Virus record (IMG/VR): IMGVR_UViG_3300030202_000014
Span: 1 to 57,421 of that record
Source: a virus
Taxonomy: Duplodnaviria > Caudoviricetes
Direction: 5' to 3' (one strand)
DNA: 57,421 nucleotides
Under the pieces are notes generated by a model. It made no database searches. It was not told where the DNA came from and saw only the letters and a list, made by a program, of their open reading frames with translations. Positions within the stretch are counted from its first letter, which is position 1. The number at the start of each line of letters is the position of its first letter. The position numbers were made by a program, and so were the translations under genes. Below are positions 1 to 57,421 of this stretch, one piece after another.

Positions 1-1160
1 GAATTAAATGGTCTGAACGTAAGATGCAGTGGACTGCGCCATCTGGCGCAAGATTGTGGATGTCATACCTAGATAAAGAAGATGACGTCTTGCGTTATCA
101 GGGTCTAGCATTTAGTTGGATAGGCTTTGACGAGTTGACACAATGGCCCACACCGTTTGCATGGAACTACATGCGCTCTCGTCTACGGTCCACTGCACCC
201 GATCTTCCAGTGTATATGAGGGCAACTACTAACCCCGGAGGTAGAGGCCATCACTGGGTAAAGAAAATGTTTATTGATCCTTCTGCTGCAGGTAAATCTT
301 TTAACGCAACAGATATTGACACAGGCGAAACTTTAAGGTATCCTTCTGGACATGAGAAAGCAGGTAAGCCTTTATTCAGACGTAGGTTTATTCCTGCTAG
401 ACTCAAAGACAACCCATACTTGGCAACGCAAGGTGACTATGAAGCCATGCTACTGTCATTACCAGAACAGCAACGTAGACAGTTATTGGATGGTGATTGG
501 GATATAAAAGAGGGCGCAGCCTTCACAGAGTTTGATAGGAATGTACATGTTGTTGAACCTTACCGTATTCCCAGTAACTGGGTCAAGTTTAGAGCTTGCG
601 ACTATGGCTATGGGTCTTATAGTGCCGTACTTTGGTTTGCTGTCTCACCTAGTGAACAGATAGTTGTATACAGAGAACTATACGTTAGTAAAGTATTAGC
701 TACTGATTTAGCTGACATGGTTCTTGAACTAGAAGCAGAAGATGGAAATATAAAGTATGGAGTGCTTGATAGTTCTTTGTGGCATAAGCGTGGTGATACT
801 GGTCCATCGTTGGCTGAACAGATGATACAGAAGGGATGCCGTTGGCGACCATCTGACAGATCAAAAGGATCACGTGTAGCAGGTAAAAATGAAATACACA
901 GACGTTTGCAAATAGACGAGTTTACAGAAGAACCTAGAATGGTATTTTTTAACAACTGTGTAAACACTGTAGCACAATTACCTGCTTTACCAATAGATAA
1001 AAAGAATCCAGAAGACGTTGATACAAAGTCAGAAGATCACTTGTATGATGCTTTAAGATACGGTATAATGTCAAGACCAAGATTTAGTGTATTTGATTAC
1101 GATCCGCATGGCGCACCTTCTATGGGTATGAGAGTTGCAGATAATGTATTTGGCTATTAA
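1..1160 (+). CDS. terL: Terminase large subunit, C-terminal part (continues from 57018-57421 across the contig junction)
   Basis: Walker B WIGFDE, coupling motif ATTNPGG, nuclease motifs DYGY and EDHLYDALRY; the frame is open from base 3 (IKWSERKMQW), matching the right end. Confidence 0.95.
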   Translation, partial: IKWSERKMQWTAPSGARLWMSYLDKEDDVLRYQGLAFSWIGFDELTQWPTPFAWNYMRSRLRSTAPDLPVYMRATTNPGGRGHHWVKKMFIDPSAAGKSFNATDIDTGETLRYPSGHEKAGKPLFRRRFIPARLKDNPYLATQGDYEAMLLSLPEQQRRQLLDGDWDIKEGAAFTEFDRNVHVVEPYRIPSNWVKFRACDYGYGSYSAVLWFAVSPSEQIVVYRELYVSKVLATDLADMVLELEAEDGNIKYGVLDSSLWHKRGDTGPSLAEQMIQKGCRWRPSDRSKGSRVAGKNEIHRRLQIDEFTEEPRMVFFNNCVNTVAQLPALPIDKKNPEDVDTKSEDHLYDALRYGIMSRPRFSVFDYDPHGAPSMGMRVADNVFGY

Positions 1161-1170
1161 GGAAAAGTAA

Positions 1171-3306
1171 ATGGCAGAAGAAAACGAAACATTTATAGAA
1201 GATGATTCAATTGTCTTAGACGATATTGAAGAGGATGTTACAGAGGATTCTCAAACAGAAAATATCATTCCATTTATTATGGAACGTTACAATCGTGCAG
1301 AAGACTATCGAAGACAAGACGAAGAACGTTGGTTACGATCTTACCGCAACTATCGTGGTATATATGGACCAGAGGTTCAGTTTACAGAAGCCGAAAAATC
1401 TCGTGTGTTTATTAAGGTAACTAAAACAAAAACACTTGCAGCATATGGTCAGATTGTAGATGTATTATTTGCAAACAATAAATTTCCACTAACTATTGAC
1501 CCTACTGAATTACCAGAGGGTGTAGTTGCAGATGTTAACTTTGATCCACAAGAACCAGAACAGCTACGTTCAAACGGTATGGATGAAACAGTTAGCCCAT
1601 ATGGATTTTCAGGAGATGGACGTGAGATACCTGCAGGTGCTACAGCTAAAACACTTGCAGATAGTCTAGGTCCAATGGCAGATAAGTTTGAGGGAATTGA
1701 TAATTTAAAACAGGGTGTAGGTAAAACACCGACTGCTGTTACGTTTAGTCCTGCAATGGTTGCAGCTAAAAACATGCAAAAGAAAATACATGACCAACTA
1801 GAAGAGTCAAATGCATCTAAACATTTACGTAGTACTGCGTTTGAAATGGCTTTGTTTGGTACAGGGATTATGAAAGGTCCGTTTGCTGTAGACAAAGAGT
1901 ATCCTAGTTGGAATGATGATGGAGAATATGAGCCTACATTTAAAACAGTTCCTCAAGTAAATCATGTATCTGTTTGGAACTTTTATCCAGATCCAGATGC
2001 AAACAACATGGACGAAGCTCAGTATGTAATTGAACGGCATAAACTATCACGTTCTCAGATGCGTAATCTAAAGAAGCGTCCTTACTTTCGCTCTCAGGTT
2101 ATTGACGAAGCTATTAAGTTAGGTGAAAACTACGACAAAGAATATTGGGAAGATGATTTATCTGACTATGCGCCAGAGCATGGTGTAGAACGATATGAGG
2201 TTCTTGAGTACTGGGGTATGGTAGAAACTGAAACCCTTGAAGAACAGGGAGTAGATATTCCAGAAGAGCTAATGGCAATGGATGAGTTACAGGCAAACGT
2301 TTGGATTTGTAACGGTAAACTTATTCGTATGGTTCTGAATCCATTCAAACCTGCTACTATTCCTTATGTAGCATCTCCCTATGAACTTAACCCATACTCA
2401 TTCTTTGGTGTTGGTATTGCTGAAAACATGGACGATACCCAAACGTTGATGAATGGTTTTATGCGTATGGCTGTAGACAATGCAGTTATGTCAGGAAACT
2501 TGTTAATTGAAGTCGATGAAACTAACTTGGTTCCGGGTCAAGACTTGTCAGTATACCCCGGTAAAGTATTTCGAAGACAGGGTGGTGCTCCGGGGCAAGC
2601 TATCTTTGGCACTAAGTTTCCAAACGTTTCTGGTGAGAACATGCAACTATTTGACAAGGCTCGTGTACTTGCAGATGAGTCAACAGGCTTTCCATCCTTT
2701 GCGCATGGACAGACAGGTGTGCAGGGTGTAGGACGTACAGCTAGTGGTATCAGTATGCTTATGGGTGCTGCCAGTGGTGCAATTAAAAATGTTATTAAAA
2801 ATGTAGATGATTACCTACTACGTCCACTTGGTGAACGTCTGTATCGTTTTAATATGCAATTTGATTTTGATCCAAATATTCGTGGTGATCTTGAAGTAAA
2901 AGCACGAGGAACAGAATCACTTATGGCTAATGAAGTGCGTAGCCAAAGACTAATGCAGTTTATGCAAATAGCAAGTAGCCCAACACTTGCGCCTTTCGCA
3001 AAATTCCAATATATTATTAGGGAAATTGCTAAGTCGTTAGAGCTTGACCCAGATAAAGTTACTAACAATATGAATGAAGCAGCAATACAAGCAGAGCTAA
3101 TGAAACAGTTTCAACAACCTGCTGAACCTGAAGGAGCACCTGCAGGAGCAGATGCAGCAGACCCAACAGGAGCAGGTGGTGGTAACATAGGAACTGGCAT
3201 GGCTCCACAACCTAATGAACAAGGATTTAGTGGAAATGGACAAGGAGCACCTCAACAAGCTGAAGTGGCTAGTGGCGAACAACCGCCAGTGGAACAACTT
3301 CAGTAA
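1171..3306 (+). CDS. Portal protein
   Basis: 711 aa directly after TerL; P22/podovirus portal-like motifs (FFGVGIAE, RTASGISML). Confidence 0.9.
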   Translation: MAEENETFIEDDSIVLDDIEEDVTEDSQTENIIPFIMERYNRAEDYRRQDEERWLRSYRNYRGIYGPEVQFTEAEKSRVFIKVTKTKTLAAYGQIVDVLFANNKFPLTIDPTELPEGVVADVNFDPQEPEQLRSNGMDETVSPYGFSGDGREIPAGATAKTLADSLGPMADKFEGIDNLKQGVGKTPTAVTFSPAMVAAKNMQKKIHDQLEESNASKHLRSTAFEMALFGTGIMKGPFAVDKEYPSWNDDGEYEPTFKTVPQVNHVSVWNFYPDPDANNMDEAQYVIERHKLSRSQMRNLKKRPYFRSQVIDEAIKLGENYDKEYWEDDLSDYAPEHGVERYEVLEYWGMVETETLEEQGVDIPEELMAMDELQANVWICNGKLIRMVLNPFKPATIPYVASPYELNPYSFFGVGIAENMDDTQTLMNGFMRMAVDNAVMSGNLLIEVDETNLVPGQDLSVYPGKVFRRQGGAPGQAIFGTKFPNVSGENMQLFDKARVLADESTGFPSFAHGQTGVQGVGRTASGISMLMGAASGAIKNVIKNVDDYLLRPLGERLYRFNMQFDFDPNIRGDLEVKARGTESLMANEVRSQRLMQFMQIASSPTLAPFAKFQYIIREIAKSLELDPDKVTNNMNEAAIQAELMKQFQQPAEPEGAPAGADAADPTGAGGGNIGTGMAPQPNEQGFSGNGQGAPQQAEVASGEQPPVEQLQ

Positions 3307-3452: not shown

Positions 3453-6400
3453 ATGATGAATAGACCCAACTTAATGTACAAACAAGGTGGCCTCAATGAT
3501 GAAGGTGGCGAAATAGATGAAGTCTCAGGCAACGAAGTTCCTGTAGGTGGCACTAAAGAGGGTGTACGAGATGACATTGAAGTTAACATGAGTGCAGGTG
3601 AATTTGTTTCAGACGAAGCAACTACACGTTATCATGGATTAAAAACATTTTTAGGTATGCGTGATGAAGCTATTATGGGTATGCAGAAAATGGAAGCAAT
3701 GGGATTGATGGGTAATTCAGATGAAGCAACATTACCCTCTGACATGCCATTTGGTATGGGCGATCTTATGGTTGTGCAAATTGATAAAGATGGAAAAGAA
3801 AAAGAATTAAACATGCAAGAAGGTGGCGTAGTTCCTAGTGGCATGGTAGATTTAAGTGATCAACAACAAGACATACCTATGCAAGAACAAATTGGTCCTG
3901 TAACATTTGACGAAGTAATGTCAGATGCAAAAATGGAATTTAAAAACTATGTAAATGCCGATGGTCAAAACCTCATGGTTCCGTTTATTGGTGGAGTACC
4001 TCTTTATCCTATACCCCCCGGATATGAATTAGATGAAGGAGAAGAAGGAGATATAACAGAAGTACCTGAACTTCCCGATCCTGCTGCACCAGTTACACCA
4101 TCAAGAGATGACGATGACGATAATGATGCTGCACTTACAGCTTATCGTGGAAGTAAAAAAGATACCAGTATTCAGTGGGATACATTATCAAATGATGAAT
4201 TTTTAATTGAAGCAAATAAACGTAATGGTTTTGGTCGGAACTTAGCTATGGGTGTAGCTTCACTTATTAGTCCTCTTGCTGCAGTCGGCATGGCAGGACT
4301 TATGAAAGTAGAAGACAATAAAGTACTTGCTATGGCAAGATCACGACTAGCTGCATTGCCACAGGGTTCTGCACAACGAGCAGAATATGAAAAGATGATT
4401 GAGTCTTACGAAGCTCGTGGTAAAGGTTTATTTGGTAGTATAATTGGTAAAATTGTAGATACTTTAGGTGGTATGTTTGGTTCCACAGATGAGCAAAAAG
4501 TAAAAGCTCAAAATGCAAACTTAGTTGCCAACAGTGGTACAGTTGTAGGAAAATACAGTGCAAATGGACAAATAACTGAAGCAGGTATTGAAGCAGTAAA
4601 CGGTGGTATCGTGGAAGGTGTTACTACTGAACAATATCAAAAAGCTCAACAAGATTTAAACTCACAAGACCCAGAAGTTAAAGCAGAAGCACAACGAATT
4701 ATGTCTAATTATATTGGGCAGGAACTCGGTAGTTATGTAAATCAAGATATACTAAATGCAGCAAAAGCAGGTATCAGTGGAAGAACACCAGAACAAACAC
4801 GTGTTGATCTTGTAAACATTGCATATCAACCTTCTACTGCACTAAAAGAACAACTAGACGGTTTAACACAGGGACAGAAAAATTTCTTAGGCTACACAGG
4901 TGAAAACTATTTAGATGTTATTGATTTTGGTAGAGAACAGGTATCTCAAATAGCACCTACAGGATTTACAACAAAAGCTCCTGATAGATCGTTTATGGGT
5001 CCAGATACTATGTCTACTCGTGCTGCATTTTCGGGTGATACAAGTGGCAATGTAATTACACAACAAGATATAACTAACCAAGAATCTAAAGTACGACAAG
5101 ATCAAGTTAATGCATTAATTAATATTGGTGTAGATAGAGCACTTGCAGAAGCATCAGTACCTTCAGTTGGTATGGGATCAGTTCAAAGTTTTACATCCAG
5201 AGATGTAGATGCGTTAGAAGGACCAGAAGCAGCAGCAAGTTTTCAAACTACACGAAAAGGACAAACACCTACAGAGTTAGGTTTTGGTGATGCACAACTT
5301 GGTGAGTTTGGTGGGTTAGGAGAACAAGTTGACGTTGGTCCTGCTTTTGATCGACAAGCCTATGGTCAAGTAGACCTATCATCTGTAGATAGAAAGAATG
5401 ACCCTGCGTATCCAGATTACTATGCAGAAAGAATGATACCTAGCCCATTTGAAGATGTTGATCCAAATACAGGAAAAGGTTTATTCGAAGGTCAAACTAC
5501 AGAAGCATTTAAAATAGGTTCTGGTCTTAGTCCAACTGAGTTAGGTTTTGGTGATGCACAGCTAGGTGAGTTTGCAGGTGTACAAAGAGCAGATACCCCT
5601 GCACCTGACTATGCTACAATGGGCATGGGAGAAAAAGGTAGAGTAACAACACCAACTACAGTAACACCTAAAGTTGATACTAAAACAGTTCAAGAAGAAA
5701 TGGCTAAACAAGAAGCTAATTACATGGAAGCTGCTTTTGGTGATCAAACAACAGATGCACTACAACTAAAAGATGTTGTACCAGATACTGCAGCCAAGAT
5801 GTCTTTTGAAGATGCCTTTGCTGCTGCACGTGCAGAAGAAAAAAGATTGGGTCTTGCTGCAGGTACTTCTCAGTTTGAGTATGATGGTAAAATGTTTTCT
5901 ACTGCCACTAAAGAACAAGCTGCAGCAAAAACAGACGAACCTGCAGAACAAAAAGGTAAGTATAGCCCAACTGCAAATAAACAATTGTCTGGTGGATATG
6001 AAACCAACACACTTAGCGATGCAGAACAAGATGCATTTGATGCTGCAGTAGATCGTGGTGATGCTAATGTAGCAAACCACTTTGCAATGGTAAATAGATC
6101 ACGTAATAAACAAGATGAATACGCTGCAAGTGGTTTTGATAAAACTGTAGGTAGGTCATTAGGTCTTTCAGATTTTGATATGCAGCAAGCAGAAGAATAC
6201 GGTGGTAGTGTACAGACAGCTATTAACGAAGGTCGTGCAGAAAAAGCTGATGGATTTTTAGGTTTTGGTAAAGTGACTGTTACTGATACAAGTAAAAGTA
6301 AGGGTGGTAGTAACGCAGGTAAAAGAGATGATGATGATAAACCTGCTACAACAACTACAACTACAAGCAGTAAAGATACTAACATTGCCTCATCAGGACG

Positions 6401-12470: not shown

Positions 12471-14894
12471 ATGCCTACCAATCGTCAAACATTTCCCATT
12501 CAGTTTAGCGGTGGGCTAATAACAAACATGAGTCCGTTGCAACAGGGTATGCAAATGCCCGGTTCTGCACGAATACTCAGAAACTTTGAGCCATCTATTG
12601 AGGGTGGATATAAACGAATACTAGGTTATGATAAGTACGACTTAGATATTATACCACCCTATGGTATACCTGTAGTAAATGGTGCATCACAAACTGGTAC
12701 AACTTTAAACATTGCAAATATTAGAAAAACACCAGAACAAAATGACAAGTTTAAATTAGTACATGTTACTGCAAACATAAACGGTACATCTACTATTGCT
12801 ACTGCAAATGGTCCAACTGCTCTTGTTAATGGTGCGGTAACTGCAGATAACACAATAATAGTGGATACAGTTGCTGCAGGTACTATAGCAAAAGGACAAG
12901 CTGTAACAGGAGTAGGTATTCCAAGTAACGTTACAGTATCTAGTGTTACAGCAGGGGCAGCAGGTAATTTTACTGTAGTACTTTCTAGTAATATAACTGT
13001 AGCAGATAACCTAGCGTTACAGTTTACTTTTAAAACTACTACATTTGCAGTAGATGGTGTGGTAGGTACAATTGTAACAGGCATGGAAATTGTTGGTACT
13101 GGTATACCAAGAGGCACAACAGTACAAGCTTTTTCATCACCAAATGTTACAATAGGTAGTGCAGCAGATACATTATCATTAGTTCTTACAGATGACACTG
13201 CACTAGAGTTTAAAACTGAATATACTATTGGTGCAAGCGTTACCTTTGATGATGATGAGAATAGAGCAACAATAGGTATATCACCTGCTCTTACTGCATC
13301 ACCTGCTAATGGAGATGAGGTAGAGTTTACAAGTACAAATACTAATCACCTTACAATAGGTTGTGGTGTATTTCTTGACTCAGTTATTGTAGCTAGAAAC
13401 GAAAGTTTAATTAAAACATCTGGCACTGGGTTCTCACTTGTAAATGTACCAGTATACGGAACTGTATTAGTAGATGGTGCATCTCAAACAGGTAGTAGTT
13501 TAGTAGTAGACGGATTAGACTCTACACCACAACTAGGCGATATATTTAAAATTGCAGGTGTAGATAAAATATATACAGTAACTGCAACACCAACAGTTAC
13601 ATCAGGTGGAGCTACAATAGCAATTGATCCTGCGCTTGCTAGTTCACCTGCAGATAATGCGGCATTAACTTTTTTAAGTACATCAAGAGAAAATGGTGGT
13701 AAAACTAGATTTTCTAGGTATAACTATACAGGATCAGAAAAAATTGCAATAGTTGATAGTATCAACGTTCCTGCATTATACAATGGTTCTCAGTTTACCG
13801 CACTTAATGATGCACCCACAGATGTAAATGCAGCAGAGTTTGTAGTAAGTTTTAAGAACCACCTATTCTTTGGCAAAAATAACTTACTAACTTTTACTGC
13901 TCCCTTTACAGATACTGACTTTACAGCAGCTAACGGTTCTGGTACAATATCTGTAGGCGCAAATATCACTGGTCTAATTGTATTTAGACAACAACTTATT
14001 ATCTTTACCGAGTCATCTATATTTCAACTATTAGGAAATACGATAGGAGACTTTAACTTACAACCAGTAACCACAGACATTGGTTGTGTAGATAAAGATA
14101 CCATACAAGAAGTTGGTGGTGACGTAATGTTTCTTGGTCCAGATGGTCTAAGACTTCTAAGTGGTACAGAGAGAATTGGTGACTTTGGATTAGGTGTTGT
14201 ATCCAAAACAATACAGAAAGAAGTAACAGACTTTATTACAGCTAACACATCTTTTACAAGTGTAGTCATACGTAATAAATCACAGTACAGAATACTAGGT
14301 TACAATAATAATATAGGACAAGCAAACGCTCAAGGCATACTTGGTACACAGATGGCAGGTCAAGGTGGCGAGGGAATGTCATGGGCAGATTTAAGAGGAA
14401 TAAGAGCATACGTAGCAGACAGTAGGTTTTTCCAAAATGCAGAAACAATTGTATTTGCAAACGATGATGGATACCTATACCAAATGGAAGAAGGTAACAG
14501 CTTTGATGGAAGTAACATTCAAACAACTTTTGCTACACCGTATATGCCAATCAATGATCCAAGAATACGTAAGACATTTTACAAGATGTTTTTGTATACT
14601 GATCCACAAGGTAGTGTTTCGTTTGACGTAAGTTTGAAACTAGACTTTGACCAAAAGAATAGTGTACAGCCTACAAAGATTGACTTTAACAATGCTACAG
14701 GAACAGTTGCATTTATGGGCGCAGCTACATTTGGATCATCTGCAGTGTATAGCTCCAAACTAAAGACACTGTTTGAAACACAAATAATTGGATCAGCTTT
14801 TGTTGTATCTCTACAGTACACATCAGATAGCGTAGACCCCCCATTTTCATTAGACGCTATTACACTAGAGTACACAACCAACACACGAAGGTAA
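12471..14894 (+). CDS. Tail nozzle / stabilisation protein (tail tubular protein B-like) with inserted beta domains
   Basis: FSGGL...NFEPSIEGGYKRI N-terminus, propeller-like core (DIGC, FLGPDGLR), 807 aa. Confidence 0.75.
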   Translation: MPTNRQTFPIQFSGGLITNMSPLQQGMQMPGSARILRNFEPSIEGGYKRILGYDKYDLDIIPPYGIPVVNGASQTGTTLNIANIRKTPEQNDKFKLVHVTANINGTSTIATANGPTALVNGAVTADNTIIVDTVAAGTIAKGQAVTGVGIPSNVTVSSVTAGAAGNFTVVLSSNITVADNLALQFTFKTTTFAVDGVVGTIVTGMEIVGTGIPRGTTVQAFSSPNVTIGSAADTLSLVLTDDTALEFKTEYTIGASVTFDDDENRATIGISPALTASPANGDEVEFTSTNTNHLTIGCGVFLDSVIVARNESLIKTSGTGFSLVNVPVYGTVLVDGASQTGSSLVVDGLDSTPQLGDIFKIAGVDKIYTVTATPTVTSGGATIAIDPALASSPADNAALTFLSTSRENGGKTRFSRYNYTGSEKIAIVDSINVPALYNGSQFTALNDAPTDVNAAEFVVSFKNHLFFGKNNLLTFTAPFTDTDFTAANGSGTISVGANITGLIVFRQQLIIFTESSIFQLLGNTIGDFNLQPVTTDIGCVDKDTIQEVGGDVMFLGPDGLRLLSGTERIGDFGLGVVSKTIQKEVTDFITANTSFTSVVIRNKSQYRILGYNNNIGQANAQGILGTQMAGQGGEGMSWADLRGIRAYVADSRFFQNAETIVFANDDGYLYQMEEGNSFDGSNIQTTFATPYMPINDPRIRKTFYKMFLYTDPQGSVSFDVSLKLDFDQKNSVQPTKIDFNNATGTVAFMGAATFGSSAVYSSKLKTLFETQIIGSAFVVSLQYTSDSVDPPFSLDAITLEYTTNTRR

Positions 14895-16463: not shown

Positions 16464-16775
16464 ATGGCAAACACTTTTAAAAATTATGTAAGTAGTTCGG
16501 CTGTAGGCACTTCAGAAGTAACAATCTACACCGTACCATCAAGTACTACTGCAGTTATCATTGGTTGTAACATAGCTAATGTAACAAGTAGTCAAATAAG
16601 AGTCACTGTAAAGGTTGCAGACACACATGTTGTGAAAGACGTACCTATACCTGCAAACTCTGCAATATCTGTTTTAGATGGTAAAATAATTGCAGAAACA
16701 ACAGACACTGTAAAGGTAACATCTAACACAGCATCAAGTGCTGATGTAATAGTGAGTGCATTGGAGCAAACATAA
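16464..16775 (+). CDS. Small tail-fibre-associated protein
   Basis: MANTFKN...YTVP type that typically follows fibres ending in AIALG. Confidence 0.6.
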   Translation: MANTFKNYVSSSAVGTSEVTIYTVPSSTTAVIIGCNIANVTSSQIRVTVKVADTHVVKDVPIPANSAISVLDGKIIAETTDTVKVTSNTASSADVIVSALEQT

Positions 16776-18163
16776 TGAGTAAATATATTGGAGCTACTGT
16801 AGTAAATCTCAGTGTAGACACTGTAGATGTTACAGGCGATATTACAGCTACTGATAGTACACCAGAACTTATATTACTAAACGACACACACGAAGATACT
16901 GATGGTGGTCGTGAAGGTAAGATAACGTTTAAGGGTGAGCAGTCAGGTGGTGAAGTTACAGTATTAGCACAGATACAGTCTGGACATGATGGTACATCAG
17001 ACGATGAAAAAGGCGATTTGATATTTAAGACTAATGACGGTTCTGATGGTGCTAGTCCAACTGAGAGGCTACGGATAGATAGTGATGGAGTAACTACATT
17101 TACTGGAAATATAGCTAATACCTCTGGTGATTTAACACTTGATATAGTGGGTGACCTTATCATTGATGTTGACGGTGGTGATGTAAAGTTTAAAGATGAC
17201 GGAACAGAGTTTTCTCAGTATTACAAAGATGGAAATGACCTTGCTATTTACTCTTCAATTAGTGATGGTGATATAAAATTTCAGGGTAAAGATGGTAGTT
17301 CTGTTGTTACTGCTATGACTATTGATATGTCGGAAGGTGGCAAGATTGGAATGGGTACAACTTCCCCTGTAACAAATTTAGATGTAGTTACCGAAAGTGC
17401 AGGAACTTTAGCAAGAATAAGAAGTAACACTAATAGTAGTCCTTCAGCAGGATTACAGTTGATGCGTGGTACAACAAGTACTTTTGGAGGAGATGCGTAT
17501 ACTGATTATTCTATCGAAAATATAAACGGTGGGCATCTTGTGTTTAATCTTGCTGAAAATAGTAGCACAACAGAAATTATGCGTATAGAATCGGGTGCAG
17601 GAAAATTTTTAATAGGTACAACTACTGTTCAAGGTGCAGGCCATACTTTTTCCGCTAGTCAATATAATTTAGTTGCAGGAGCAACTAGCACATTACAAGT
17701 CGTTCAATTTAGAAACCCTAATGGTAAAATAGGAACGATTGTTTTAAGTGGTTCTAGCACAGCCTACAATACATCTTCAGATTATCGTCTAAAAGAAAAC
17801 GTAGAAACACTTTCTGGCGCAATAACACGAGTCAAAGCATTAAAACCAAAGCGTTTTAGTTGGATTGCTGATGAAGAAAATAGTGCAAATGTAGATGGTT
17901 TTCTAGCACACGAAGCTGCAACGGTAGTACCAGAAGCAGTAACAGGAACAAAAGATGAGGTAGAAGTTTGGCAAGATGATGATGTTTTACCAGACGGTGT
18001 TTCTGTAGGTGACAATAAGTTAGATGCGGATGGTAACACTATCCCAGAATATCAAGGAATTGACCAAGCCAAGTTAGTACCATTATTAACTGCTGCACTG
18101 CAAGAGGCAATAGCTAAGATTGAAACGCTAGAAACAAAAGTAGCGGCACTGGAGGGAGAATAA
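16775..18163 (+). CDS. Tail fibre/spike with C-terminal intramolecular chaperone (peptidase S74-like)
   Basis: TSSDYRLKEN cleavage motif, GFLAHE, C-terminal coiled coil. Confidence 0.85.
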   Translation: MSKYIGATVVNLSVDTVDVTGDITATDSTPELILLNDTHEDTDGGREGKITFKGEQSGGEVTVLAQIQSGHDGTSDDEKGDLIFKTNDGSDGASPTERLRIDSDGVTTFTGNIANTSGDLTLDIVGDLIIDVDGGDVKFKDDGTEFSQYYKDGNDLAIYSSISDGDIKFQGKDGSSVVTAMTIDMSEGGKIGMGTTSPVTNLDVVTESAGTLARIRSNTNSSPSAGLQLMRGTTSTFGGDAYTDYSIENINGGHLVFNLAENSSTTEIMRIESGAGKFLIGTTTVQGAGHTFSASQYNLVAGATSTLQVVQFRNPNGKIGTIVLSGSSTAYNTSSDYRLKENVETLSGAITRVKALKPKRFSWIADEENSANVDGFLAHEAATVVPEAVTGTKDEVEVWQDDDVLPDGVSVGDNKLDADGNTIPEYQGIDQAKLVPLLTAALQEAIAKIETLETKVAALEGE

Positions 18164-18164
18164 C

Positions 18165-20447
18165 ATGTCAGGATATATAGGCCCAATACCAGTACCACAG
18201 GGTATACAAGAAAAAGAAACGTTTACAGCAACTGCAGGGCAGACAACCTTTGGTACAAAAGGTTATACAGACGGTGCTTTTATTAATGTGTTCCTCAACG
18301 GTGTACGCCTTGTAAATGGTACAGACTATACAGCTACAAATGGTAGTGATGTAGTATTGGCATCTGGTGCTAATGCAGGTGATGTACTTGACTTTGAAAC
18401 AGTTAATCAAGTACAGCTAGTAAGCAACACTTCAACTACACCAATCTTTAAAACTAGTGCTACGCTAAAGAATGACACCGAAGAAGATACTGACGGTGGC
18501 AGAGAAAGCACTCTTATATTTCAAGGTGAACAGTCTGGTGGTGAGATTAGTACACTGGCTCAGATACAGGCATCACACGATGGCACATCTGATGACCAGA
18601 AGGGTGACTTAATCTTCAAGACTAATGATGGTAGTGATAACAATGCACCTACTGAGAGGCTACGTATAGATAGTAATGGCTCTATTATTACAGCAACACT
18701 AGGCACAAATAACACACATCTTGGAGAAGGTGCAGGTGCAGCTATAGTTTCTGGTGGCAATAATAATGTTCTTGTTGGTAAAGATGCAGGGAATGCAATA
18801 ACTACTGGAGATAAAAATACTGCAATAGGTGTTGGGGCTTTAGATGTAAATACAACTGCAAGCTTCAATACAGGCCTTGGGTACAATAGTTTAGGAGCTA
18901 ACATTACTGGTGTTCACAACACAGCAATAGGCAGTGAAGGTCAAGACGGTAGATCTGTACTACATAGTAACACAACAGGTGGCTATAATGTTGCTGTTGG
19001 TAATCAGGCTTTATCAAGCAATACTACTGCAAGCTACAACACAGCCGTTGGATACCAATCTCTTAACTTAAATACTACAGGTAGTTTAAACGTATCTGTT
19101 GGACTTAACGCTTTATATAACAATACTACCGCAAGCAACAACACAGCAGTAGGGTATGCGGCAGGGTCTGCTGTTACAACAGGTCAATATAGTACTTTTA
19201 TAGGTTCTGTTGCAGGAACCGCTACGACTACGGCAGATTGGAACACCTTTGTTGGTTATGAGGCAGGAAATGACAACACTACAGGAACTCAAAATACATT
19301 TTTAGGAGCAAGATCAGGTGATTTAAACACAACAGGTGGTTATGGCGTTGCTGTTGGTGTAAATTCATTAGGAGCAAACACAACAGGTAATTATAATACA
19401 GCGATTGGTAATGCTGCTTTACAATCCAACACCACCGCATCTCAAAACACAGCCGTTGGTTATCAAGCTATGTATACTAATACGACTGGTGTTGAAAGTG
19501 TTGCGGTAGGTTATGAGGCTTTAAGAGCTAACACAACTGCTCATACCAATCATGCCTTTGGATATAGAGCTTTGAAGGCTAATACTACTGGTGGGTCTAA
19601 TTGTGCTGTTGGTCATAATGCCCTTACAGCTAATGCCACTGGATCTGCTCAGACTGCTGTTGGATATGGTGCGCTTTCTAGTGAAACGACATCTGGTAAT
19701 AATACAGCAGTTGGCACTGATTCTTTAAAGACTCAAAATGGTGCTGCTAACAATACTGCTATTGGGTATCATGCAGGAGAAAATATAACAAGCGGCACTC
19801 AAAATACACTTGTAGGCTCACAAGCAGGAGATGAACTAACCACAGGTAATTACAATGTTATGGTAGGGTATGTAACAGGTACATACTCAACTAATAATAC
19901 AACTGGGTCTAGAAACACACTTGTAGGTTCATATACTAGAGCTATAGTTGGTGCTACTGACGATGCAAATGGTTTTGGACATGATATAAATGCTGACGGT
20001 GGTTACACAACAATCGGAGTAAGCACTAATGATATTAGGGCTTCTCATGGTAGCACAACATGGTCAACAGTATCAGATGAAAGATATAAAAAAGACATTA
20101 CGGACAGCACCGTTGGTTTGTCTTTTGTAAATGCATTACAACCAAGAACATTCAACTATAAAAACAAAGGTGAGCTTCCAGATACTTTTCGTGCCTATGA
20201 AGAAGGTTCTACTGAAGTATTCAAATCTTCTCAAACTCAACATGGATTTATAGCGCAAGAAGTAAAAACAGCTATTGAAGCAGATAGTGGAATAAAAGAT
20301 GGTTTTAAGTTATGGGATGAAAGAGAAGACGGTTCTCAAGAAGTTGCAGAAGCAGCACTAATACCTGTTTTAGTTAAGGCTATCCAAGAACTGTCAGCAA
20401 AGAACGGTGCATTGGAAGCTAGACTAGACGCATTGGAGGCAGAATAA
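18165..20447 (+). CDS. Tail fibre with 14-aa beta-roll repeats and S74-like chaperone
   Basis: Many NTTxxxNTAVG repeats; VSDERYKKDI; GFIAQEV. Confidence 0.85.
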   Translation: MSGYIGPIPVPQGIQEKETFTATAGQTTFGTKGYTDGAFINVFLNGVRLVNGTDYTATNGSDVVLASGANAGDVLDFETVNQVQLVSNTSTTPIFKTSATLKNDTEEDTDGGRESTLIFQGEQSGGEISTLAQIQASHDGTSDDQKGDLIFKTNDGSDNNAPTERLRIDSNGSIITATLGTNNTHLGEGAGAAIVSGGNNNVLVGKDAGNAITTGDKNTAIGVGALDVNTTASFNTGLGYNSLGANITGVHNTAIGSEGQDGRSVLHSNTTGGYNVAVGNQALSSNTTASYNTAVGYQSLNLNTTGSLNVSVGLNALYNNTTASNNTAVGYAAGSAVTTGQYSTFIGSVAGTATTTADWNTFVGYEAGNDNTTGTQNTFLGARSGDLNTTGGYGVAVGVNSLGANTTGNYNTAIGNAALQSNTTASQNTAVGYQAMYTNTTGVESVAVGYEALRANTTAHTNHAFGYRALKANTTGGSNCAVGHNALTANATGSAQTAVGYGALSSETTSGNNTAVGTDSLKTQNGAANNTAIGYHAGENITSGTQNTLVGSQAGDELTTGNYNVMVGYVTGTYSTNNTTGSRNTLVGSYTRAIVGATDDANGFGHDINADGGYTTIGVSTNDIRASHGSTTWSTVSDERYKKDITDSTVGLSFVNALQPRTFNYKNKGELPDTFRAYEEGSTEVFKSSQTQHGFIAQEVKTAIEADSGIKDGFKLWDEREDGSQEVAEAALIPVLVKAIQELSAKNGALEARLDALEAE

Positions 20448-22642
20448 TGACTAACGCAAGAGAATTAGCAAACCTTGTTGGTGGTACACTAACCAACTTA
20501 ACATCTGGTACTAGCAACGTAGCGTTAGGTGATGAGGCACTTGAGGCTGTAACCTCTGGTGCTAACAATACTGGTATTGGTGTAAATGCAGGTACTGCAA
20601 TTACTACTGGTTCAGGAAACACAGCACTTGGTCATCGTGCAGGAGAGGCAATTACTACAGCCGATAACAATGTGTTTATTGGTAAAGAGGCAGGACTTGT
20701 TAATACGACAGGTGCTTCTAATGTGGCAGTAGGTAGAGATGCATTAGTCTCAAATACCACTGCAGGTAACAACACAGCAGTTGGTTATCAGTCATTATAT
20801 AGTAACACTACCGCAGATAGAAACTCTGCTATTGGGTATCAATCTCTTAATGCTAACACTACAGGTTTCAGAAATACTGCCGTTGGATATATTGCACTCC
20901 AAGACAACACAACGGGCAACAGAAATGTAGCTGTTGGTGAACAAGCTCTAGCAAATAACACTACGGCATCTGATAATACGGCTGTTGGAGAGGCAGCTAT
21001 GGCATCTAACACGACAGGTGCATATAATGTTGCTGTAGGTAAAGAGGCATTACTTGCAAACACTACAGCATCTAACAACACTGCCGTTGGTCATCAGGCT
21101 CTTGCTGCTAATACCACTGGTACAGAAGTAGTTGCCCTTGGAGCAAGTGCTGCTGCTGCTAATACTACTGCAAACTTTACAACAGCCCTTGGAGCAAATG
21201 CTCTTGCTGCAAATACTACAGGTGCTGCCAACGTAGCTATAGGTGCTGCTGCTCTTAATGCAAATACAACTGGTGCAAATAACGTAGCTATAGGGCGGCA
21301 AACTATGTTAGCTAATACAACAGGTGGTAGCAGCGTTGCTTTAGGTTATCAAGCTCTTGCCACAAATACCACCGCATCTAACAACGTGGCTGTGGGGTAT
21401 CAAGCTCTTCTTGATAACACTACTGGTGACGATATGGTTGCGGTTGGTTTTCAAGCATTAGCTAACAACACGACAGGCCAAGACAATAACGCTGTTGGTA
21501 TTCAGTCACTCCTCAATAACACAACAGGAAATTACAATGATGCCCTTGGAGTTACCGCACTTCGTCAAAATACTACTGGAAGTAATAACATAGCGGTTGG
21601 TAGGCAATCACTTTATAACAACACCACTGCAACTCACAATGTTGCGTTAGGATATCAAAGTTTATACAGCACAACATCAGGTGGTGACAATGTAGCAATA
21701 GGTAGTGGCGCACTGTATAACAATACTAACATTAGAAATACGGCTGTAGGTTATAATGCAATGTATTACAACACTACTGGAACAAGTGATGTAGCGGTAG
21801 GTTATAATGCTCTTTTAAATAATACGACAGGTAGTGAAAATACTGCTATTGGTTGGGAGACACTTAGGGCGCATACTACTGGAGCGCAAAATACTGCTCT
21901 TGGTCGTCAGTCTGGTTATAATCTCACAACAGGAACAGTAAATACATTTCTTGGAGAGGCTTCGGGTTATTACATAACCACTGGTTCTAAGAATGTTGTT
22001 ATTGGACGCTACACAGGCAACCAAGGCGGCCTAGACATCCGCACCTCAAGCAACAATGTCGTGTTGTCTGATGGGGATGGTAATATTAGGTTTTTTGCTA
22101 ATAGTTCTGATCAAGTGTTTTTTGCAGGGAAAAGGACTAGTTCAACAACAGATGATGGTGTGATGATTTCACCTGATGGAGCAGGGGGAAGAATTACTGT
22201 TGTAAGTGACAATGGATCAGGTAATGCCATGTTTCATGGTTTAAGAGAAGATACTGGTGCTGCTACTATTTTAATAAGACCAAATGGTAATGTACAAAAT
22301 GCAAATAATTCTTATGCAAGTATTTCTGATATTAATAAAAAAGAAAACATTGCAGATGCTTCTTCTCAATGGGATGATATTAAAGCATTGCGAGTAAGAA
22401 AGTACAGCTTAAAAGATGACGCTTCTCCAGTAGCAAATCAGATTGGGGTTATTGCTCAAGAAGTTCAAGCGGCAGGTATGGGTGGTTTAGTATCGACTGT
22501 GCCTGATACAGAAGACCCATCGAAAGATGACATCTCTGTAAAATATTCTGTTCTCTACATGAAAGCAGTCAAGGCACTGCAAGAGGCAATGACTAGGATT
22601 GAAACACTTGAAACCAAAGTAACGGCTCTTGAAGCCGAATAA
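20447..22642 (+). CDS. Tail fibre with 14-aa beta-roll repeats and S74-like chaperone
   Basis: Long run of ALxxNTTGxxNxAVG repeats; ISDINKKENI; GVIAQEV. Confidence 0.85.
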   Translation: MTNARELANLVGGTLTNLTSGTSNVALGDEALEAVTSGANNTGIGVNAGTAITTGSGNTALGHRAGEAITTADNNVFIGKEAGLVNTTGASNVAVGRDALVSNTTAGNNTAVGYQSLYSNTTADRNSAIGYQSLNANTTGFRNTAVGYIALQDNTTGNRNVAVGEQALANNTTASDNTAVGEAAMASNTTGAYNVAVGKEALLANTTASNNTAVGHQALAANTTGTEVVALGASAAAANTTANFTTALGANALAANTTGAANVAIGAAALNANTTGANNVAIGRQTMLANTTGGSSVALGYQALATNTTASNNVAVGYQALLDNTTGDDMVAVGFQALANNTTGQDNNAVGIQSLLNNTTGNYNDALGVTALRQNTTGSNNIAVGRQSLYNNTTATHNVALGYQSLYSTTSGGDNVAIGSGALYNNTNIRNTAVGYNAMYYNTTGTSDVAVGYNALLNNTTGSENTAIGWETLRAHTTGAQNTALGRQSGYNLTTGTVNTFLGEASGYYITTGSKNVVIGRYTGNQGGLDIRTSSNNVVLSDGDGNIRFFANSSDQVFFAGKRTSSTTDDGVMISPDGAGGRITVVSDNGSGNAMFHGLREDTGAATILIRPNGNVQNANNSYASISDINKKENIADASSQWDDIKALRVRKYSLKDDASPVANQIGVIAQEVQAAGMGGLVSTVPDTEDPSKDDISVKYSVLYMKAVKALQEAMTRIETLETKVTALEAE

Positions 22643-26275: not shown

Positions 26276-26810
26276 AAAACAATTGGTAGATGGACCTATA
26301 CCGGGAATGGGTCTTACACATGAAGTGGGTGGTAGACCTTGGCAAAAACCTCCTCAGTATAACACAGTAGAAGAAGCGTTAGAATATTATATCCCACGTT
26401 TTAGTGATCCAAAAGTAGTTGATCAATTACTTGATGTCATGGAGTTAGGTATACCACTAACAACAATTGCAGATGCAATGCAAAGTTCTGCTGTTATGGA
26501 AGGTATGCATAGTATTGATGTAGGGTTACTTGCTATGCCAGTGCTTATAGAAATGATGGCTTACATTGGTGATGAGTCAGGAGTTGAGTATAAGCTTGGT
26601 TTAGAAGAACGTATAGATGATGATGAAGTATCCGATACTAAAATAGCTCTTGCAATGAAAAAGGTAAGAGAGGAAATGCCTGAACGATTAGAAGAGGCAC
26701 GACTTAATGCAGTACCAAAGGAAGAACCTGCAGAAGAAATGGTAACAGAAGAAGAACCGATGGAAAAAGAAGCACCTGAACTTGGTGGATTAATGGCAAG
26801 GAGAGCATAA
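26262..26810 (+). CDS. Conserved phage protein
   Basis: PIPGMGLT...PWQKPPQY motif; ends GGLMARRA. Confidence 0.7.
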   Translation: MATPRKQLVDGPIPGMGLTHEVGGRPWQKPPQYNTVEEALEYYIPRFSDPKVVDQLLDVMELGIPLTTIADAMQSSAVMEGMHSIDVGLLAMPVLIEMMAYIGDESGVEYKLGLEERIDDDEVSDTKIALAMKKVREEMPERLEEARLNAVPKEEPAEEMVTEEEPMEKEAPELGGLMARRA

Positions 26811-40054: not shown

Positions 40055-40321
40055 CTAACCATTGTTCATTTCCTTTCGTTCCTTTGCTCGTTGTCTTTCA
40101 TCAAAACTAAATGGCCTGATGTCATTATAAGTACTCACCTTATCGACAGACCTGTTTGTATCGAAGTCAACTATTACTCCTGTATTCCATTTACAACGTT
40201 CTTCCTCTGCATCTTTTAAATTATCAAATAGCTTTGGTTTTGGGTAATTCACAAACCCATGTGTATTCTCTGGCACATACATGATGTCACCATCCACATC
40301 AATTACTACTGCTAGTCTCAT
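40055..40321 (-). CDS. Hypothetical protein
   Basis: AAGGAG RBS before MRLAVVID. Confidence 0.6.
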   Translation of the reverse strand: MRLAVVIDVDGDIMYVPENTHGFVNYPKPKLFDNLKDAEEERCKWNTGVIVDFDTNRSVDKVSTYNDIRPFSFDERQRAKERKEMNNG

Positions 40322-40518
40322 CCCTCTCTCCTTATTACACAACTAATATCAATTACTGGATCATTAAATCCTGCTACTGAAATAACTTCTACTGCAAGCG
40401 TACTTGCATTACTGGCGTCAGTAACATACTCAGTACAATCTTTTTTATATTCAAACGTTTTGTATGGTATAACAAATGGATCACCTGCATATAAAGTTAT
40501 AAGTATAACCCAGTTCAT
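40318..40518 (-). CDS. Small two-cysteine protein
   Basis: Hydrophobic N-terminus, FxxxxxC...C. Confidence 0.6.
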   Translation of the reverse strand: MNWVILITLYAGDPFVIPYKTFEYKKDCTEYVTDASNASTLAVEVISVAGFNDPVIDISCVIRREG

Positions 40519-41177
40519 AGGTTAGCCATCAGTGCTTGCCACGATACAGGAAAAGCATTTAACATTACGTTCTCTATTTCTACTGCAACTAACTGTGTCT
40601 CTAACTGTGTGTCATCTGCACACCGTAGGCTACACATCTTAGCAAAAGCATACAAGCTACCTGACCAGTACCACTCTGTCATCATAGACTGTGGCAATAC
40701 CATACGTGCTTGCTCTGGTGCTACTCCATGATGGAGTAAAAGTTTATAGTTTTCTAACGCTCTTTTATGTACACTTCCACTTAATATATTAGGTGGAGCA
40801 GGTGGTACTACACCTTCGCTGCCTTGCTTCTTATCTGCACTACGCCCACGCCAATGTTCTGGATCATAGAACTCAGGCTCACTGTCTACATACCTACGGC
40901 TAATCTCATTCCAAGGCATGTACTCATGCTTTACAAGTTGACGTGCAACAAACACTGGTGCTTTAACATGGAAGGTAGCAAAAGCATGGTTAAATGGTGA
41001 CTTGTGATTGTGTTCAGCAAGATACTTAATTAGCTTTACATCAGCAGGTTTTAGTTCCCACTTACCTTTGATCAAGTCAGTACACTCGTACTTAGACTTC
41101 TTACCGAATGATACACGTGCAGCGTTTACTACACTAATGTCATCTCCCATATGTGATATGTATGTTACCTCAATCAT
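40515..41177 (-). CDS. thyX: Flavin-dependent thymidylate synthase
   Basis: NAARVSF, HKSPF, RQLVKH, NEISRRY, EQARMVLP. Confidence 0.93.
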   Translation of the reverse strand: MIEVTYISHMGDDISVVNAARVSFGKKSKYECTDLIKGKWELKPADVKLIKYLAEHNHKSPFNHAFATFHVKAPVFVARQLVKHEYMPWNEISRRYVDSEPEFYDPEHWRGRSADKKQGSEGVVPPAPPNILSGSVHKRALENYKLLLHHGVAPEQARMVLPQSMMTEWYWSGSLYAFAKMCSLRCADDTQLETQLVAVEIENVMLNAFPVSWQALMANL

Positions 41178-51813: not shown

Positions 51814-52084
51814 AGATGTAGAACGATTACCCAGTGGTAAATTGAAGTATCGTGGTGAAACATTTCCCGGCTACAACAAACCAAAGCGCACTAGTGGTGG
51901 TTCTAAGAAATCTGCTGTATTAGCAAAGAAGGGTGATCAGGTAAAACTAGTTCGTTTTGGTGATCCTAACATGAGTATCAAAAAAGATGATCCTGCTAGA
52001 CGTAGAAGCTTTCGTGCTAGACATAACTGTGATACAGCCAAAGATAAGTTTACAGCAAGATACTGGAGTTGTAGAGCATGGTAA
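51800..52084 (+). CDS. Basic conserved phage protein
   Basis: GYNKPKRT...VRFGDPNM...SFRARHNC...YWSCRAW. Confidence 0.75.
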   Translation: MATTKDVERLPSGKLKYRGETFPGYNKPKRTSGGSKKSAVLAKKGDQVKLVRFGDPNMSIKKDDPARRRSFRARHNCDTAKDKFTARYWSCRAW

Positions 52085-54920: not shown

Positions 54921-55165
54921 TGGCTCTTGCTAAGTCACAAAAAAGTCTCAAGTCTTGGACGAAACAAAAGTGGAGAACCAAGAGTGGTAAGCCTAGTGCT
55001 AAAACTGGTGAACGTTATTTACCTACTGCGGCTATTAAGTCTCTTAGCAGCAGTGAGTATGCCGCTACAACCAGAGCTAAACGACAAGGCACGAAGGCAG
55101 GTAAGCAGCATGTGGCTCAACCTAAGAAAATCGCAGAAAAAACTAGACGATACAGGAGAACCTAA
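54920..55165 (+). CDS. Basic protein, DUF5872-like C-terminal half
   Basis: SQKSLKSWTKQKWRT...ERYLP. Confidence 0.7.
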   Translation: MALAKSQKSLKSWTKQKWRTKSGKPSAKTGERYLPTAAIKSLSSSEYAATTRAKRQGTKAGKQHVAQPKKIAEKTRRYRRT

Positions 55166-55850: not shown

Positions 55851-55852
55851 TT

Positions 55853-56323: not shown

Positions 56324-56694
56324 TGGCTAGACAACTAACAGAACAGCAACAACAGTTTTTAAACGTATTATTTGAAGAAGCAGGTGGAGATGTTCTCACA
56401 GCAAAAAAGCTTGCAGGATATTCAGATACAACGTCAACGACTAGTGTTGTAAATAGTTTGAAGGAAGAGATTATAGATGCTACTCAAACGTTTTTATCAC
56501 GCAATGCTCCGAAAGCTGCAATGGCAATGGTTGGGGCGTTGTACGATCCTACTGAGCTAGGTATTCGTGATAAGATGCAAGCAGCTAAAGAACTACTTGA
56601 TCGTACTGGTCTTGTAAAGACTGAGAAGATGCAAGTTGAGGCAAAGGGTGGTGTAATGCTTATGCCACCAAAACAAATGGAAGAAGATGACTAA
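56323..56694 (+). CDS. Putative terminase small subunit
   Basis: LTEQQQQFL...AKKLAGYS HTH-like start; AAKELLDRTG. Confidence 0.65.
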   Translation: MARQLTEQQQQFLNVLFEEAGGDVLTAKKLAGYSDTTSTTSVVNSLKEEIIDATQTFLSRNAPKAAMAMVGALYDPTELGIRDKMQAAKELLDRTGLVKTEKMQVEAKGGVMLMPPKQMEEDD

Positions 56695-57112
56695 ACCATT
56701 AAAGCAATGGAAGTTACCCCAACCAACTGACATAAAAGAAGACAACGAGTGGATACCTATTCCACGTATATCACGCACCATTCCTTTTGGATATGATGTA
56801 GACCCCGATGATCCAGACGTACTATTACCGAATGAACATCAGCTAGATATGCTAGAGAAAGCACAGAAGTATTTGAAACAATACTCCTATCGTGAAGTAG
56901 CTAACTGGCTCACAAGAAATACTGGCAGAAGCATTTCGCATGTAGGTTTGAGGAAACGGTTAGACAATGAGCGAAGAAGAAAAAACAAAGTTGGAAGCCT
57001 ACGCAGATGGGCAGACTATGCGAAAAAGGCAATCGCCAAAGCGGAGGAACTCGAAGCCAAAAGGCTCGGAGCAAAAAACCAAAGCAGTCAAGAAGACTCA
57101 AGCGCAGCCTAA
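56687..57112 (+). CDS. HTH-containing protein upstream of TerL
   Basis: IPFGY...SYREVANWL...ISHVGLRKR. Confidence 0.65.
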   Translation: MTKPLKQWKLPQPTDIKEDNEWIPIPRISRTIPFGYDVDPDDPDVLLPNEHQLDMLEKAQKYLKQYSYREVANWLTRNTGRSISHVGLRKRLDNERRRKNKVGSLRRWADYAKKAIAKAEELEAKRLGAKNQSSQEDSSAA

Positions 57113-57421
57113 AGCAAATCCTGTAGTAGATGAAATATCTATTGAGGAACAACACAACGTTATATTCAAACCAAACGAAGGTCCACAGACGGACTTTCTA
57201 GCTGCAGGTGAAAGAGAAGTATTATATGGTGGCAGTGCAGGTGGAGGTAAATCCTACGCCATGTTAGCTGACCCCTTACGTTACATGGGCCATCCTGCCT
57301 TTTCTGGATTGTTACTACGGCATACAACAGAAGAACTTAGGGAACTTATATTTAAATCACAAGAAATGTACCCTAAGATTTGGAAAGGTATTAAGTGGTC
57401 TGAACGAAAGATGCAGTGGAC
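57018..57421 (+). CDS. terL: Terminase large subunit, N-terminal part
   Basis: Manual translation ...FKPNEGPQTDFL...VLYGGSAGGGKSYAML (Walker A); start codon uncertain. Confidence 0.9.
   Translation, partial: MRKRQSPKRRNSKPKGSEQKTKAVKKTQAQPKANPVVDEISIEEQHNVIFKPNEGPQTDFLAAGEREVLYGGSAGGGKSYAMLADPLRYMGHPAFSGLLLRHTTEELRELIFKSQEMYPKIWKGIKWSERKMQW

Follow-up and report, generated by a model that had tools for sequence, protein, structure and literature searches.

The words CCAGC and CCWGG (W, A or T) are both missing from the 57,421-bp genome of a marine podovirus of the HMO-2011 type, deposited as IMG/VR record IMGVR_UViG_3300030202_000014 and analysed here over its whole length, which is called the window below. 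Their absence is real and far beyond chance; the two words were lost independently across relatives, their loss is accompanied by effects on codon choice and dipeptide content, and no DNA methyltransferase was found in the phage. We consider it very probable that this phage evades host restriction–modification passively, and that the joint gap at CCAGS (S, C or G) reflects independent CCWGG and CCAGC targets.

Absence of CCAGC and CCWGG from the window

On the plus strand, the 135 CCAG words read CCAGA (78) or CCAGT (57) and never CCAGC or CCAGG, and the 143 CTGG words read ACTGG (79) or TCTGG (64) and never CCTGG or GCTGG. The rule put forward in an earlier by-eye note on this sequence, that CCAG and CTGG are always flanked by A or T, was thus obeyed by all 278 words. 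Counts on both strands were then set against Markov nulls of order 0, order 1 and maximal order, which predicted 55–80 CCAGC/GCTGG and 57–61 CCAGG/CCTGG words, none of either being observed. Synonymous codon shuffles within genes (n = 300) gave means of 74.6 for the CCAGC class (minimum 57) and 28.6 for CCWGG (minimum 16), no shuffle coming near 0, and genome-wide codon shuffling produced values close to these. The strictest null permuted third bases among codons sharing the first two bases, the amino acid and the following base (200 shuffles), and so fixed the proteins, the codon usage of each gene and the exact dinucleotide counts. Under this null, 54.7 ± 6.1 CCAGC (minimum 39) and 22.4 ± 3.6 CCWGG words (minimum 10) were expected versus 0 and 0 observed, and the Poisson probabilities of finding none are 1.7e-24 and 1.8e-10, respectively. 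The count check proposed in the earlier note, against Markov and codon-shuffled expectations, therefore left CCAGG, CCTGG, CCAGC and GCTGG all at 0 and nowhere near expectation. Its suspicion that CGCG and CCGG are scarce was also well founded, as CGCG occurs 0 times versus 9.1 expected under the strictest null, and CCGG 8 times versus 18.2 (minimum 10).

The depletion did not extend to words that merely resemble CCAGC. Observed and expected counts were 146/153 for ACAGC, 186/182 for GCAGC, 98/108 for TCAGC, 142/136 for CCAGA and 136/128 for CCAGT, and the only depleted neighbours were words targeted themselves, namely CCAGG, CCCGC (0/9) and CCGGC, which contains CCGG. Since the single-base neighbours, bar words purged in their own right, stand at expectation, CCAGC is an exact 5-mer target; it is also an orientation-independent one.

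Independent loss of the two words among relatives

The comparison with relatives suggested in the earlier note was run on 80 loci (±10 kb) around portal homologues from viral contigs, each scored against its own first-order Markov expectation, and both CCAGC-only and CCWGG-only purges occur. Among 82 sequences (the 80 loci, the window and Roseobacter phage CRP-345, its top database match), 39 lacked CCWGG and carried CCAGC at or above expectation, 7 lacked CCAGC and kept CCWGG, and 5, the window among them, lacked both; 6 were too short for all three words counted, and the rest were intermediate or partly scorable. The genome G001 (57.7 kb with terminal repeats, portal gene 74% identical) mirrors the window, with observed/expected counts of 0/76 for CCAGC and 0/62 for CCWGG, and with 8 CCGG sites. 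The complete genome G002 (the contig of L060) has CCAGC at 5/72, no CCGG and 10 CCWGG sites, all at Pro-Gly codon pairs, and the loci L032, L035, L030 and L078 are likewise purged of CCAGC with CCWGG kept. A third complete genome, G003 (the contig of L050), has CCAGC at 50/66, no CCWGG, and GATC at 0/138.

Loci of two unrelated marine phage types were also counted. CCAGC avoidance was found in 0 of 65 scorable CRP-6-type loci and in 2 of 69 scorable CRP-7-type loci, namely L251 (CCAGC 0/15, CCWGG 17/14) and the 39.9-kb G004 (the contig of L261; CCAGC 3/40, CCWGG 28/40). G004 is also purged of GCAGC (2/41), and the target in its lineage might be a degenerate SCAGC. In a portal tree built from 77 rows by a quick IQ-TREE run (with support from the Shimodaira–Hasegawa-like approximate likelihood ratio test, SH-aLRT, only), CCAGC was lacking in 11 of the 70 rows scored for it, with at least 7 state changes, to be read with the caution that in mosaic genomes the portal tree need not equal the tree of the flanking DNA.

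The earlier note had offered two accounts of the CCAGS gap, one degenerate target or a second host defence motif. A single host enzyme cutting CCAGS would account for the words being absent together, as they are in the window and G001. However, purging CCAGC would be pointless if the same enzyme cut the retained CCAGG, and this is the situation in G002, in the four loci like it, and in L251 and G004 of the CRP-7 type; the 39 sequences that lack CCWGG and carry CCAGC at or above expectation speak to the same effect from the other side. A CCAGS enzyme is therefore very unlikely, and the account that stands is the second one, CCAGC being purged as a target in its own right.

Effects of the purge on codon choice

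The word and its reverse complement were removed alike and in every reading frame, with a solution that differs by frame. Ala-Gly is encoded as GCA-GGN in 109 of 109 cases, in line with the earlier note, which had it as typically GCA-GGN and never GCT-GGN, although GCA makes up 53% of all Ala codons. Only GCA is left because GCT-GG is GCTGG itself, GCC-GG contains CCGG, and GCG-GG is GCGGG, the complement of CCCGC. Overlapping bans act in the same way on Pro-Ala, which is CCT-GCN in 47 of 47 cases, and four such constraints are at work over the two dipeptides. Further, Gln in the context C_CAR_S (R, A or G) is CAA in all 29 cases, Leu in the context S_Leu_G is never CTG (0/187), Ser after NCC is never AGC (0/33), and none of the 197 Trp codons is preceded by a codon ending in GC or CC. 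G001 obeys the same rule, with GCA at 121 of 121 Ala-Gly pairs and CCT at 57 of 57 Pro-Ala pairs. With zero sites anywhere in the window, the earlier view of a selection that reshapes codon choice even in the tail-fibre genes agrees with the data.

The window and CRP-345 align over 39.5 kb at 77.2% identity, and 48 of the CCAGC/GCTGG sites of CRP-345 fall within the alignment. The window differs by one base at 32 of these, the commonest changes from CRP-345 to the window being GCTGG to GCAGG (15) and CCAGC to CCTGC (7). The peptide is unchanged at 24 of the 48 sites and different at 22, and 2 are non-coding, much of the change being background at this divergence. Nearly all sites would have been removed synonymously, with the fix set by the reading frame and a single codon left where forbidden words overlap.

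Conflict between CCWGG and CCGG at Pro-Gly

CCWGG is the word of the EcoRII/Dcm class and CCGG that of the HpaII/MspI class, and the two collide in the window at Pro-Gly. In CCN-GGN, an A or T at the third position gives CCWGG and a C or G gives CCGG, so that joint avoidance is impossible because the codon pair must hold one of them. The window encodes 8 Pro-Gly pairs in 18,149 residues, all as CCS-GGN and identical with its 8 CCGG sites (Table 1), which are all forced because CCWGG is avoided. With residues shuffled within proteins, 42.6 ± 5.8 pairs were expected and 0 of 200 shuffles were as low as 8, a depletion of about five-fold. The restriction of Pro-Gly to CCC and CCG codons had been noticed before and was confirmed at all eight pairs; seven of the codon starts then listed are right, and the first lies at 234, not 233.

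The ratio of observed to expected Pro-Gly was compared over 13 genomes, two of them counted on the first 50 kb, and it tracks the completeness of the CCWGG and CCGG purge. It was 0.92 in CRP-7, which avoids neither word; 0.61–0.76 in HMO-2011, CRP-9, CRP-2 and CRP-603, which keep 9–16 non-forced sites of one word; 0.36–0.48 in CRP-738 and G003; and 0.16–0.28 in the window, G001, G002, CRP-345 and CRP-1, in which every CCWGG or CCGG left is a Pro-Gly pair. The outlier was CRP-6, an unrelated type with a broad palindrome purge, at 0.14 despite 12 CCGG sites outside Pro-Gly.

The surviving pairs were encoded in opposite ways among close lineages. In the five strongest genomes, the ratios of CCW to CCS coding were 0:8, 0:8, 10:0, 7:0 and 11:1, and of the 7 CCGG sites in the window that align with CRP-345, 6 read CCWGG in that phage. 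Over 8.3 kb, L020 and L021 are 93.6% identical in DNA; none of their 4 aligned Pro-Gly sites agrees, CCAGG standing against CCSGG, and the sites differ in this choice only. On the portal tree, this choice switched 8 times or more. Loss of CCAGC occurs alongside both coding choices; a tie between the two was looked for and dropped, as no trend appeared in only 5 independent pairs.

Protein alignments with 8 CCGG-tolerant relatives, comparisons that are mutually non-independent, showed that the window has other residues, mostly AG, VG, PN, PS or PF, at a third to two-thirds of the Pro-Gly pairs of these relatives, and that nearly every Pro-Gly of the window is also Pro-Gly in them. Judging from these sequence comparisons, we read the loss of Pro-Gly as follows: two restriction targets, for which no synonymous change escapes both, drove the replacement of amino acids. 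The lineage would have lost most of its Pro-Gly pairs by replacement and would encode the remainder with the lesser-evil word, CCSGG in the window. Our literature search found no paper tying site avoidance to dipeptide loss or to amino-acid sequence.

A wider purge of motif classes

When a motif class was called purged at an observed count of no more than 10% of an expectation of at least 7 under the strictest null, at least 16 classes in the window qualified (Table 1); the purged words can also be summarised as GGYRCC (Y, C or T) and RGATCY, among others. The four-base palindromes GATC, ACGT, AGCT, CATG and CTAG are within about 9% of expectation under the same null, which indicates that the purge is word-specific and not a general palindrome bias.

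Several further deviations in word counts were noted. AGGAGG/CCTCCT occurs 2 times in the window versus 12–22 expected; AGGAGG is the Shine-Dalgarno core, and its scarcity may be due to the avoidance of internal sequences resembling ribosome-binding sites and not to restriction. For CGWCG, 11–48 copies were expected and 0 found, and GCAGC is over-represented, with 186 copies versus about 104 expected; in G003 GCAGC is low (19/88). GATC, at 132/136 in the window, is absent versus about 138 expected from both G003 and Puniceispirillum phage HMO-2011, and it is avoided in 9 of 46 portal loci of at least 9 kb, none of which avoids CCAGC. In CRP-6 (L087), CTGCAG, GTATAC, TACGTA, AACGTT, ATGCAT, CACGTG, TGATCA and other 6-mer palindromes are absent or nearly so, CAGCTG is over-represented (38 versus 16), and CTTAAG and GTTAAC reach or exceed their expected counts, a profile quite unlike that of CRP-345.

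Table 1. Purged motif classes and Pro-Gly codon pairs of the window; for single motif classes the last column gives the observed/expected count under the strictest null
Feature	Position	Strand	Detail
Free of CCAGC/GCTGG, CCAGG/CCTGG and CGCG	1..57421	both	at least 13 further motif classes strongly depleted
CCAGC	whole window		0/54.7
CCWGG	whole window		0/22.4
CAGCTG	whole window		0/21.5
GGGAC	whole window		1/17.5
CAGCTC	whole window		1/17.5
CCAGTC	whole window		1/13.2
GCAGGC	whole window		1/12.0
CGWCG	whole window		0/10.6
TCTAGA	whole window		1/10.5
AGATCT	whole window		1/10.4
CCCGC	whole window		0/9.2
GGCACC	whole window		0/9.1
CGCG	whole window		0/9.1
GGTACC	whole window		0/8.9
TGGCCA	whole window		0/8.0
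CTTAAG	whole window		0/7.5
Pro-Gly, CCC-GGA	234..239	+	terminase large subunit gene
Pro-Gly, CCG-GGT	2533..2538	+	portal gene; residues invariant in 8 aligned portals
Pro-Gly, CCC-GGT	2557..2562	+	portal gene
Pro-Gly, CCG-GGG	2590..2595	+	portal gene
Pro-Gly, CCC-GGA	4017..4022	+	1151-amino-acid protein without assigned function
Pro-Gly, CCC-GGT	12558..12563	+	807-amino-acid tail protein
Pro-Gly, CCG-GGA	26301..26306	+	182-amino-acid open reading frame
Pro-Gly, CCC-GGC	51866..51871	+	94-amino-acid open reading frame

Genome identity, gene content and closest relatives

The window is the whole IMG/VR record, has a G+C content of 40.6%, and is estimated by CheckV to be 100% complete. Its last 32 bases (57390–57421) repeat positions 3–34 at 94% identity, in keeping with a complete genome that is circularly permuted or terminally redundant. 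A megablast search with the first 25 kb returned HMO-2011-type podoviruses. CRP-345 ranked first, 42% of the query being aligned at 81.7% identity, and Puniceispirillum phage HMO-2011 and further CRP phages came next. The window is thus a complete HMO-2011-type marine podovirus.

Annotation with Pfam on 76 open reading frames (ORFs) and with PHROGs on 52 of these gave Pfam matches to terminase, an SU10-type portal and adaptor, ribonucleotide reductase, ThyX, a DnaB-like helicase and family A DNA polymerase, and further to endonuclease I, a PD-(D/E)XK nuclease (Cas4/PD-(D/E)XK exonuclease), an integrase and MazG. Neither Pfam on the 76 ORFs nor PHROGs on the 52 revealed a DNA methyltransferase or a known anti-restriction gene, the sole methyltransferase hint being a weak partial PHROG match of the 94-amino-acid ORF (E 5.6e-6). 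Three tail-fibre genes lie in a row at 16775–22642, each with a C-terminal Peptidase_S74 intramolecular chaperone domain; in the comparison with CRP-345, a match at 53% identity covers 10% of the first and none was obtained for the other two, and this divergence suggests, at the level of sequence, a host specificity unlike that of the closest isolate. The earlier guess of a SAR116 or Roseobacter host agrees with the closest cultured relatives.

CRP-345 and other cultured HMO-2011-type phages have the same genome plan as the window, and CRP-345 shares with it the purge of CGCG, CAGCTG, CTTAAG, TGGCCA, GAATTC, CCATGG, GGTACC, RGATCY and GGGAC. In contrast to the window, CRP-345 keeps 68 CCAGC, 18 CGWCG and 8 CCCGC sites, is wholly purged of CCGG with its 7 Pro-Gly pairs all CCW-GGN, and encodes gp61 (40158–40862 of CRP-345), a class I S-adenosylmethionine-dependent methyltransferase absent from the window. 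The gp61 gene has the large virion-module gene on one side and the scaffold/coat region on the other. It was considered as the reason why CRP-345 keeps CCAGC and was set aside, no homologue being present in the window or the 80 portal loci.

A profile scan of genome contigs for prophage relatives with the portal alignment returned 18 loci, all on phage-like contigs in metagenome-assembled genomes (MAGs). These loci (L088–L105) are HMO-2011-type contigs, some of 55–63 kb, in bins labelled Flavobacteriales, Neomarinimicrobiota, Blastopirellula, Legionellales, Pelagibacter and others, and the labels most likely reflect binning contamination and are no evidence of hosts.

Discussion

Restriction-site avoidance is a long-known phage strategy. 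Because the purge in the window is word-specific, symmetric between the strands and independent of the reading frame, in a phage in which no methyltransferase was found, we infer that host restriction endonucleases exert the selection. The phage would escape these enzymes by not carrying their recognition words; the palindromic CCWGG and the asymmetric CCAGC/GCTGG, the latter in both orientations, would be two independent enzyme targets, and both purges would sit within the wider multi-word purge. In marine plankton bins, CGCG and DCCWGGH motifs carrying N4-methylcytosine and homologues of CAGCTG- and CGWCG-type endonucleases have been reported (PMC8919816, supplement); CCGG was not found there as a whole word. 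Homologues of the CGWCG endonuclease Hpy99I are present in four marine viral bins, and a CGWCG methyltransferase homologue in one (PMC8919816, Data S3), and phage-carried endonucleases could be one source of the CGWCG pressure. Phages of the RCA lineage are reported to infect a very narrow set of hosts among strains with nearly identical 16S genes, which fits strain-level defence variation, a point that the accessible part of the study does not test (PMC6918029); restriction is mentioned there once, with regard to a phage methylase and not to site avoidance. Our literature search found no paper linking marine phages with restriction-site avoidance.

Several findings weigh against host restriction as the cause. 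The 18 MAG loci, with labels of at least 7 phyla or classes, give no host clue. CRP-345, CRP-7 and CRP-6 come from the same strain, FZCC0042, and have very different avoidance profiles, so that a profile does not simply mirror the enzymes of the isolation host; what it records seems to be the history of the lineage and not a single strain. CCAGC/GCTGG as a whole word is absent from the marine methylome supplement (PMC8919816), and its only matches in a second supplement (PMC9516812) lay in the header row of a table listing every 5-mer. For CCAGC, the one specificity we found that is defined by experiment is that of the Type III methyltransferase ModD1 from Neisseria meningitidis, which methylates CC(m6A)GC according to the accessible part of its description (PMC4417156). 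As far as the consulted part of a survey of double-stranded DNA phages reports, avoidance falls mostly on orthodox Type II sites and rarely on Type III sites (PMC6286503). CCAGC persists in each of the 8 cultured HMO-2011-type phages, at 43–156 sites (the CRP-1 count covers 50,000 of 54,045 bases). Finally, Gly-Pro stands at 22 versus 42 expected in the window and is about two-fold low in most genomes, although GGNCC is not avoided, which indicates that part of any deficit in Pro/Gly dipeptides is baseline.

The class of the enzyme acting on CCAGC can be judged from the orientation of sites. Type III enzymes need pairs of inversely oriented sites, so clearing one orientation suffices to escape them. 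The window and G001, however, have 0 sites in both orientations, and the partly depleted L011 (6:4) and L014 (4:3) show no orientation bias; because of these two observations an orientation-independent enzyme is favoured, and we infer one that cuts regardless of orientation and is Type IIS-like rather than classical Type III. That the pressure comes instead from a Type III, ModD1-like system is unlikely, even though ModD1 recognises exactly the 5-mer purged in the window and even though the five CCAGC-class sites of G002 (7395, 17559, 23779, 28786 and 48803) all read GCTGG on the same strand over 41 kb, an arrangement to be expected after escape from a Type III enzyme but with a chance of about 1 in 16 (about 0.06), five sites being too few to prove a Type III enzyme. 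Besides the loss of both orientations, the rarity of Type III avoidance in the surveyed phages counts against such a system, and ModD1 itself is a phase-variable regulator of a human-associated betaproteobacterium (PMC4417156, accessible part). Otherwise, as far as the accessible texts go, a Listeria lineage modifies GCTGG (PMC10687267), and a GCTGG system, its class unstated, is predicted in Streptococcus thermophilus, whose phages do not avoid the word (PMC12322248). These three, all non-marine, were the only systems that our literature search returned for CCAGC/GCTGG as a restriction or methylation motif.

Causes other than a host enzyme were also weighed. A CCAGC-cutting nuclease of the phage itself, used for example to degrade host DNA, with the site lost to spare its own genome, might be sought in endonuclease I, the Cas4/PD-(D/E)XK exonuclease or the many ORFs without assigned function, but the named nucleases are conserved in CRP-345 with its 68 CCAGC sites, and one enzyme would not explain at least 16 purged words. 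Moreover, a search for a gene specific to CCAGC-free phages, whether a nuclease or a shared tail fibre, yielded no window gene with homologues in both G001 and G002 and absent from 8 non-avoiders, and we hold a phage nuclease to be highly improbable. Mutation bias through deamination of methylated cytosine, translational codon-pair bias or base-calling errors at modified motifs are most improbable of all as explanations. Codon-pair biases do exist in general. Modified GCTGG is, in the accessible part of one report, a source of systematic nanopore errors (PMC10687267). Against these stand replacements that are frame-dependent and mostly synonymous, with base changes that differ by frame, the clearing of both strands and all three frames, the loss of Pro-Gly at the protein level, the single-base neighbours of CCAGC at expectation, and the recurrence of the same purge classes in separately deposited isolate genomes and many separate contigs. 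The frame-dependent solutions in particular argue that none of these biases or artefacts is the main cause.

Host restriction as the selective agent also agrees with avoidance as surveyed in double-stranded DNA phages (PMC6286503, consulted part): words are depleted on both strands, no protective methyltransferase was found, and the words are mostly palindromic and Type II-like. The window differs from that survey in the number of purged classes (at least 16 under a strict null), in having lost every copy of an asymmetric 5-mer, whichever its orientation, and in the reduction to one codon at two dipeptides together with the roughly five-fold loss of another dipeptide. The kind of avoidance is known, and what stands out is its extremity, its footprint at the protein level and the predicted CCAGC-specific restriction activity in uncultured marine hosts.

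Taken further, it is conceivable, and we put it forward tentatively, that hosts of abundant ocean podoviruses carry an undescribed, orientation-independent CCAGC restriction activity that has repeatedly and completely purged the word from HMO-2011-type phages and, separately, CRP-7-type phages, and that combined CCWGG and CCGG pressure removed about four-fifths of Pro-Gly, the coding of the survivors flipping among close lineages. Known hosts of HMO-2011-type phages are SAR116 and the Roseobacter RCA lineage, both abundant marine bacteria (PMC6918029, accessible part). If this proposal is true, the avoidance profiles of uncultured phages would show which restriction systems uncultured marine bacteria possess, with predicted host activities against CCAGC, CCWGG, CCGG, CGCG, CGWCG, GGGAC, CCCGC, CAGCTG and others. 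Restriction pressure in these populations appears strong and combinatorial. The window would then be a clean natural example of the evasion of a DNA-level defence constraining protein sequence and not only codon choice, and the rapid toggling between CCWGG-free and CCGG-free coding at Pro-Gly would mark recent shifts in the defence landscape of a phage lineage.

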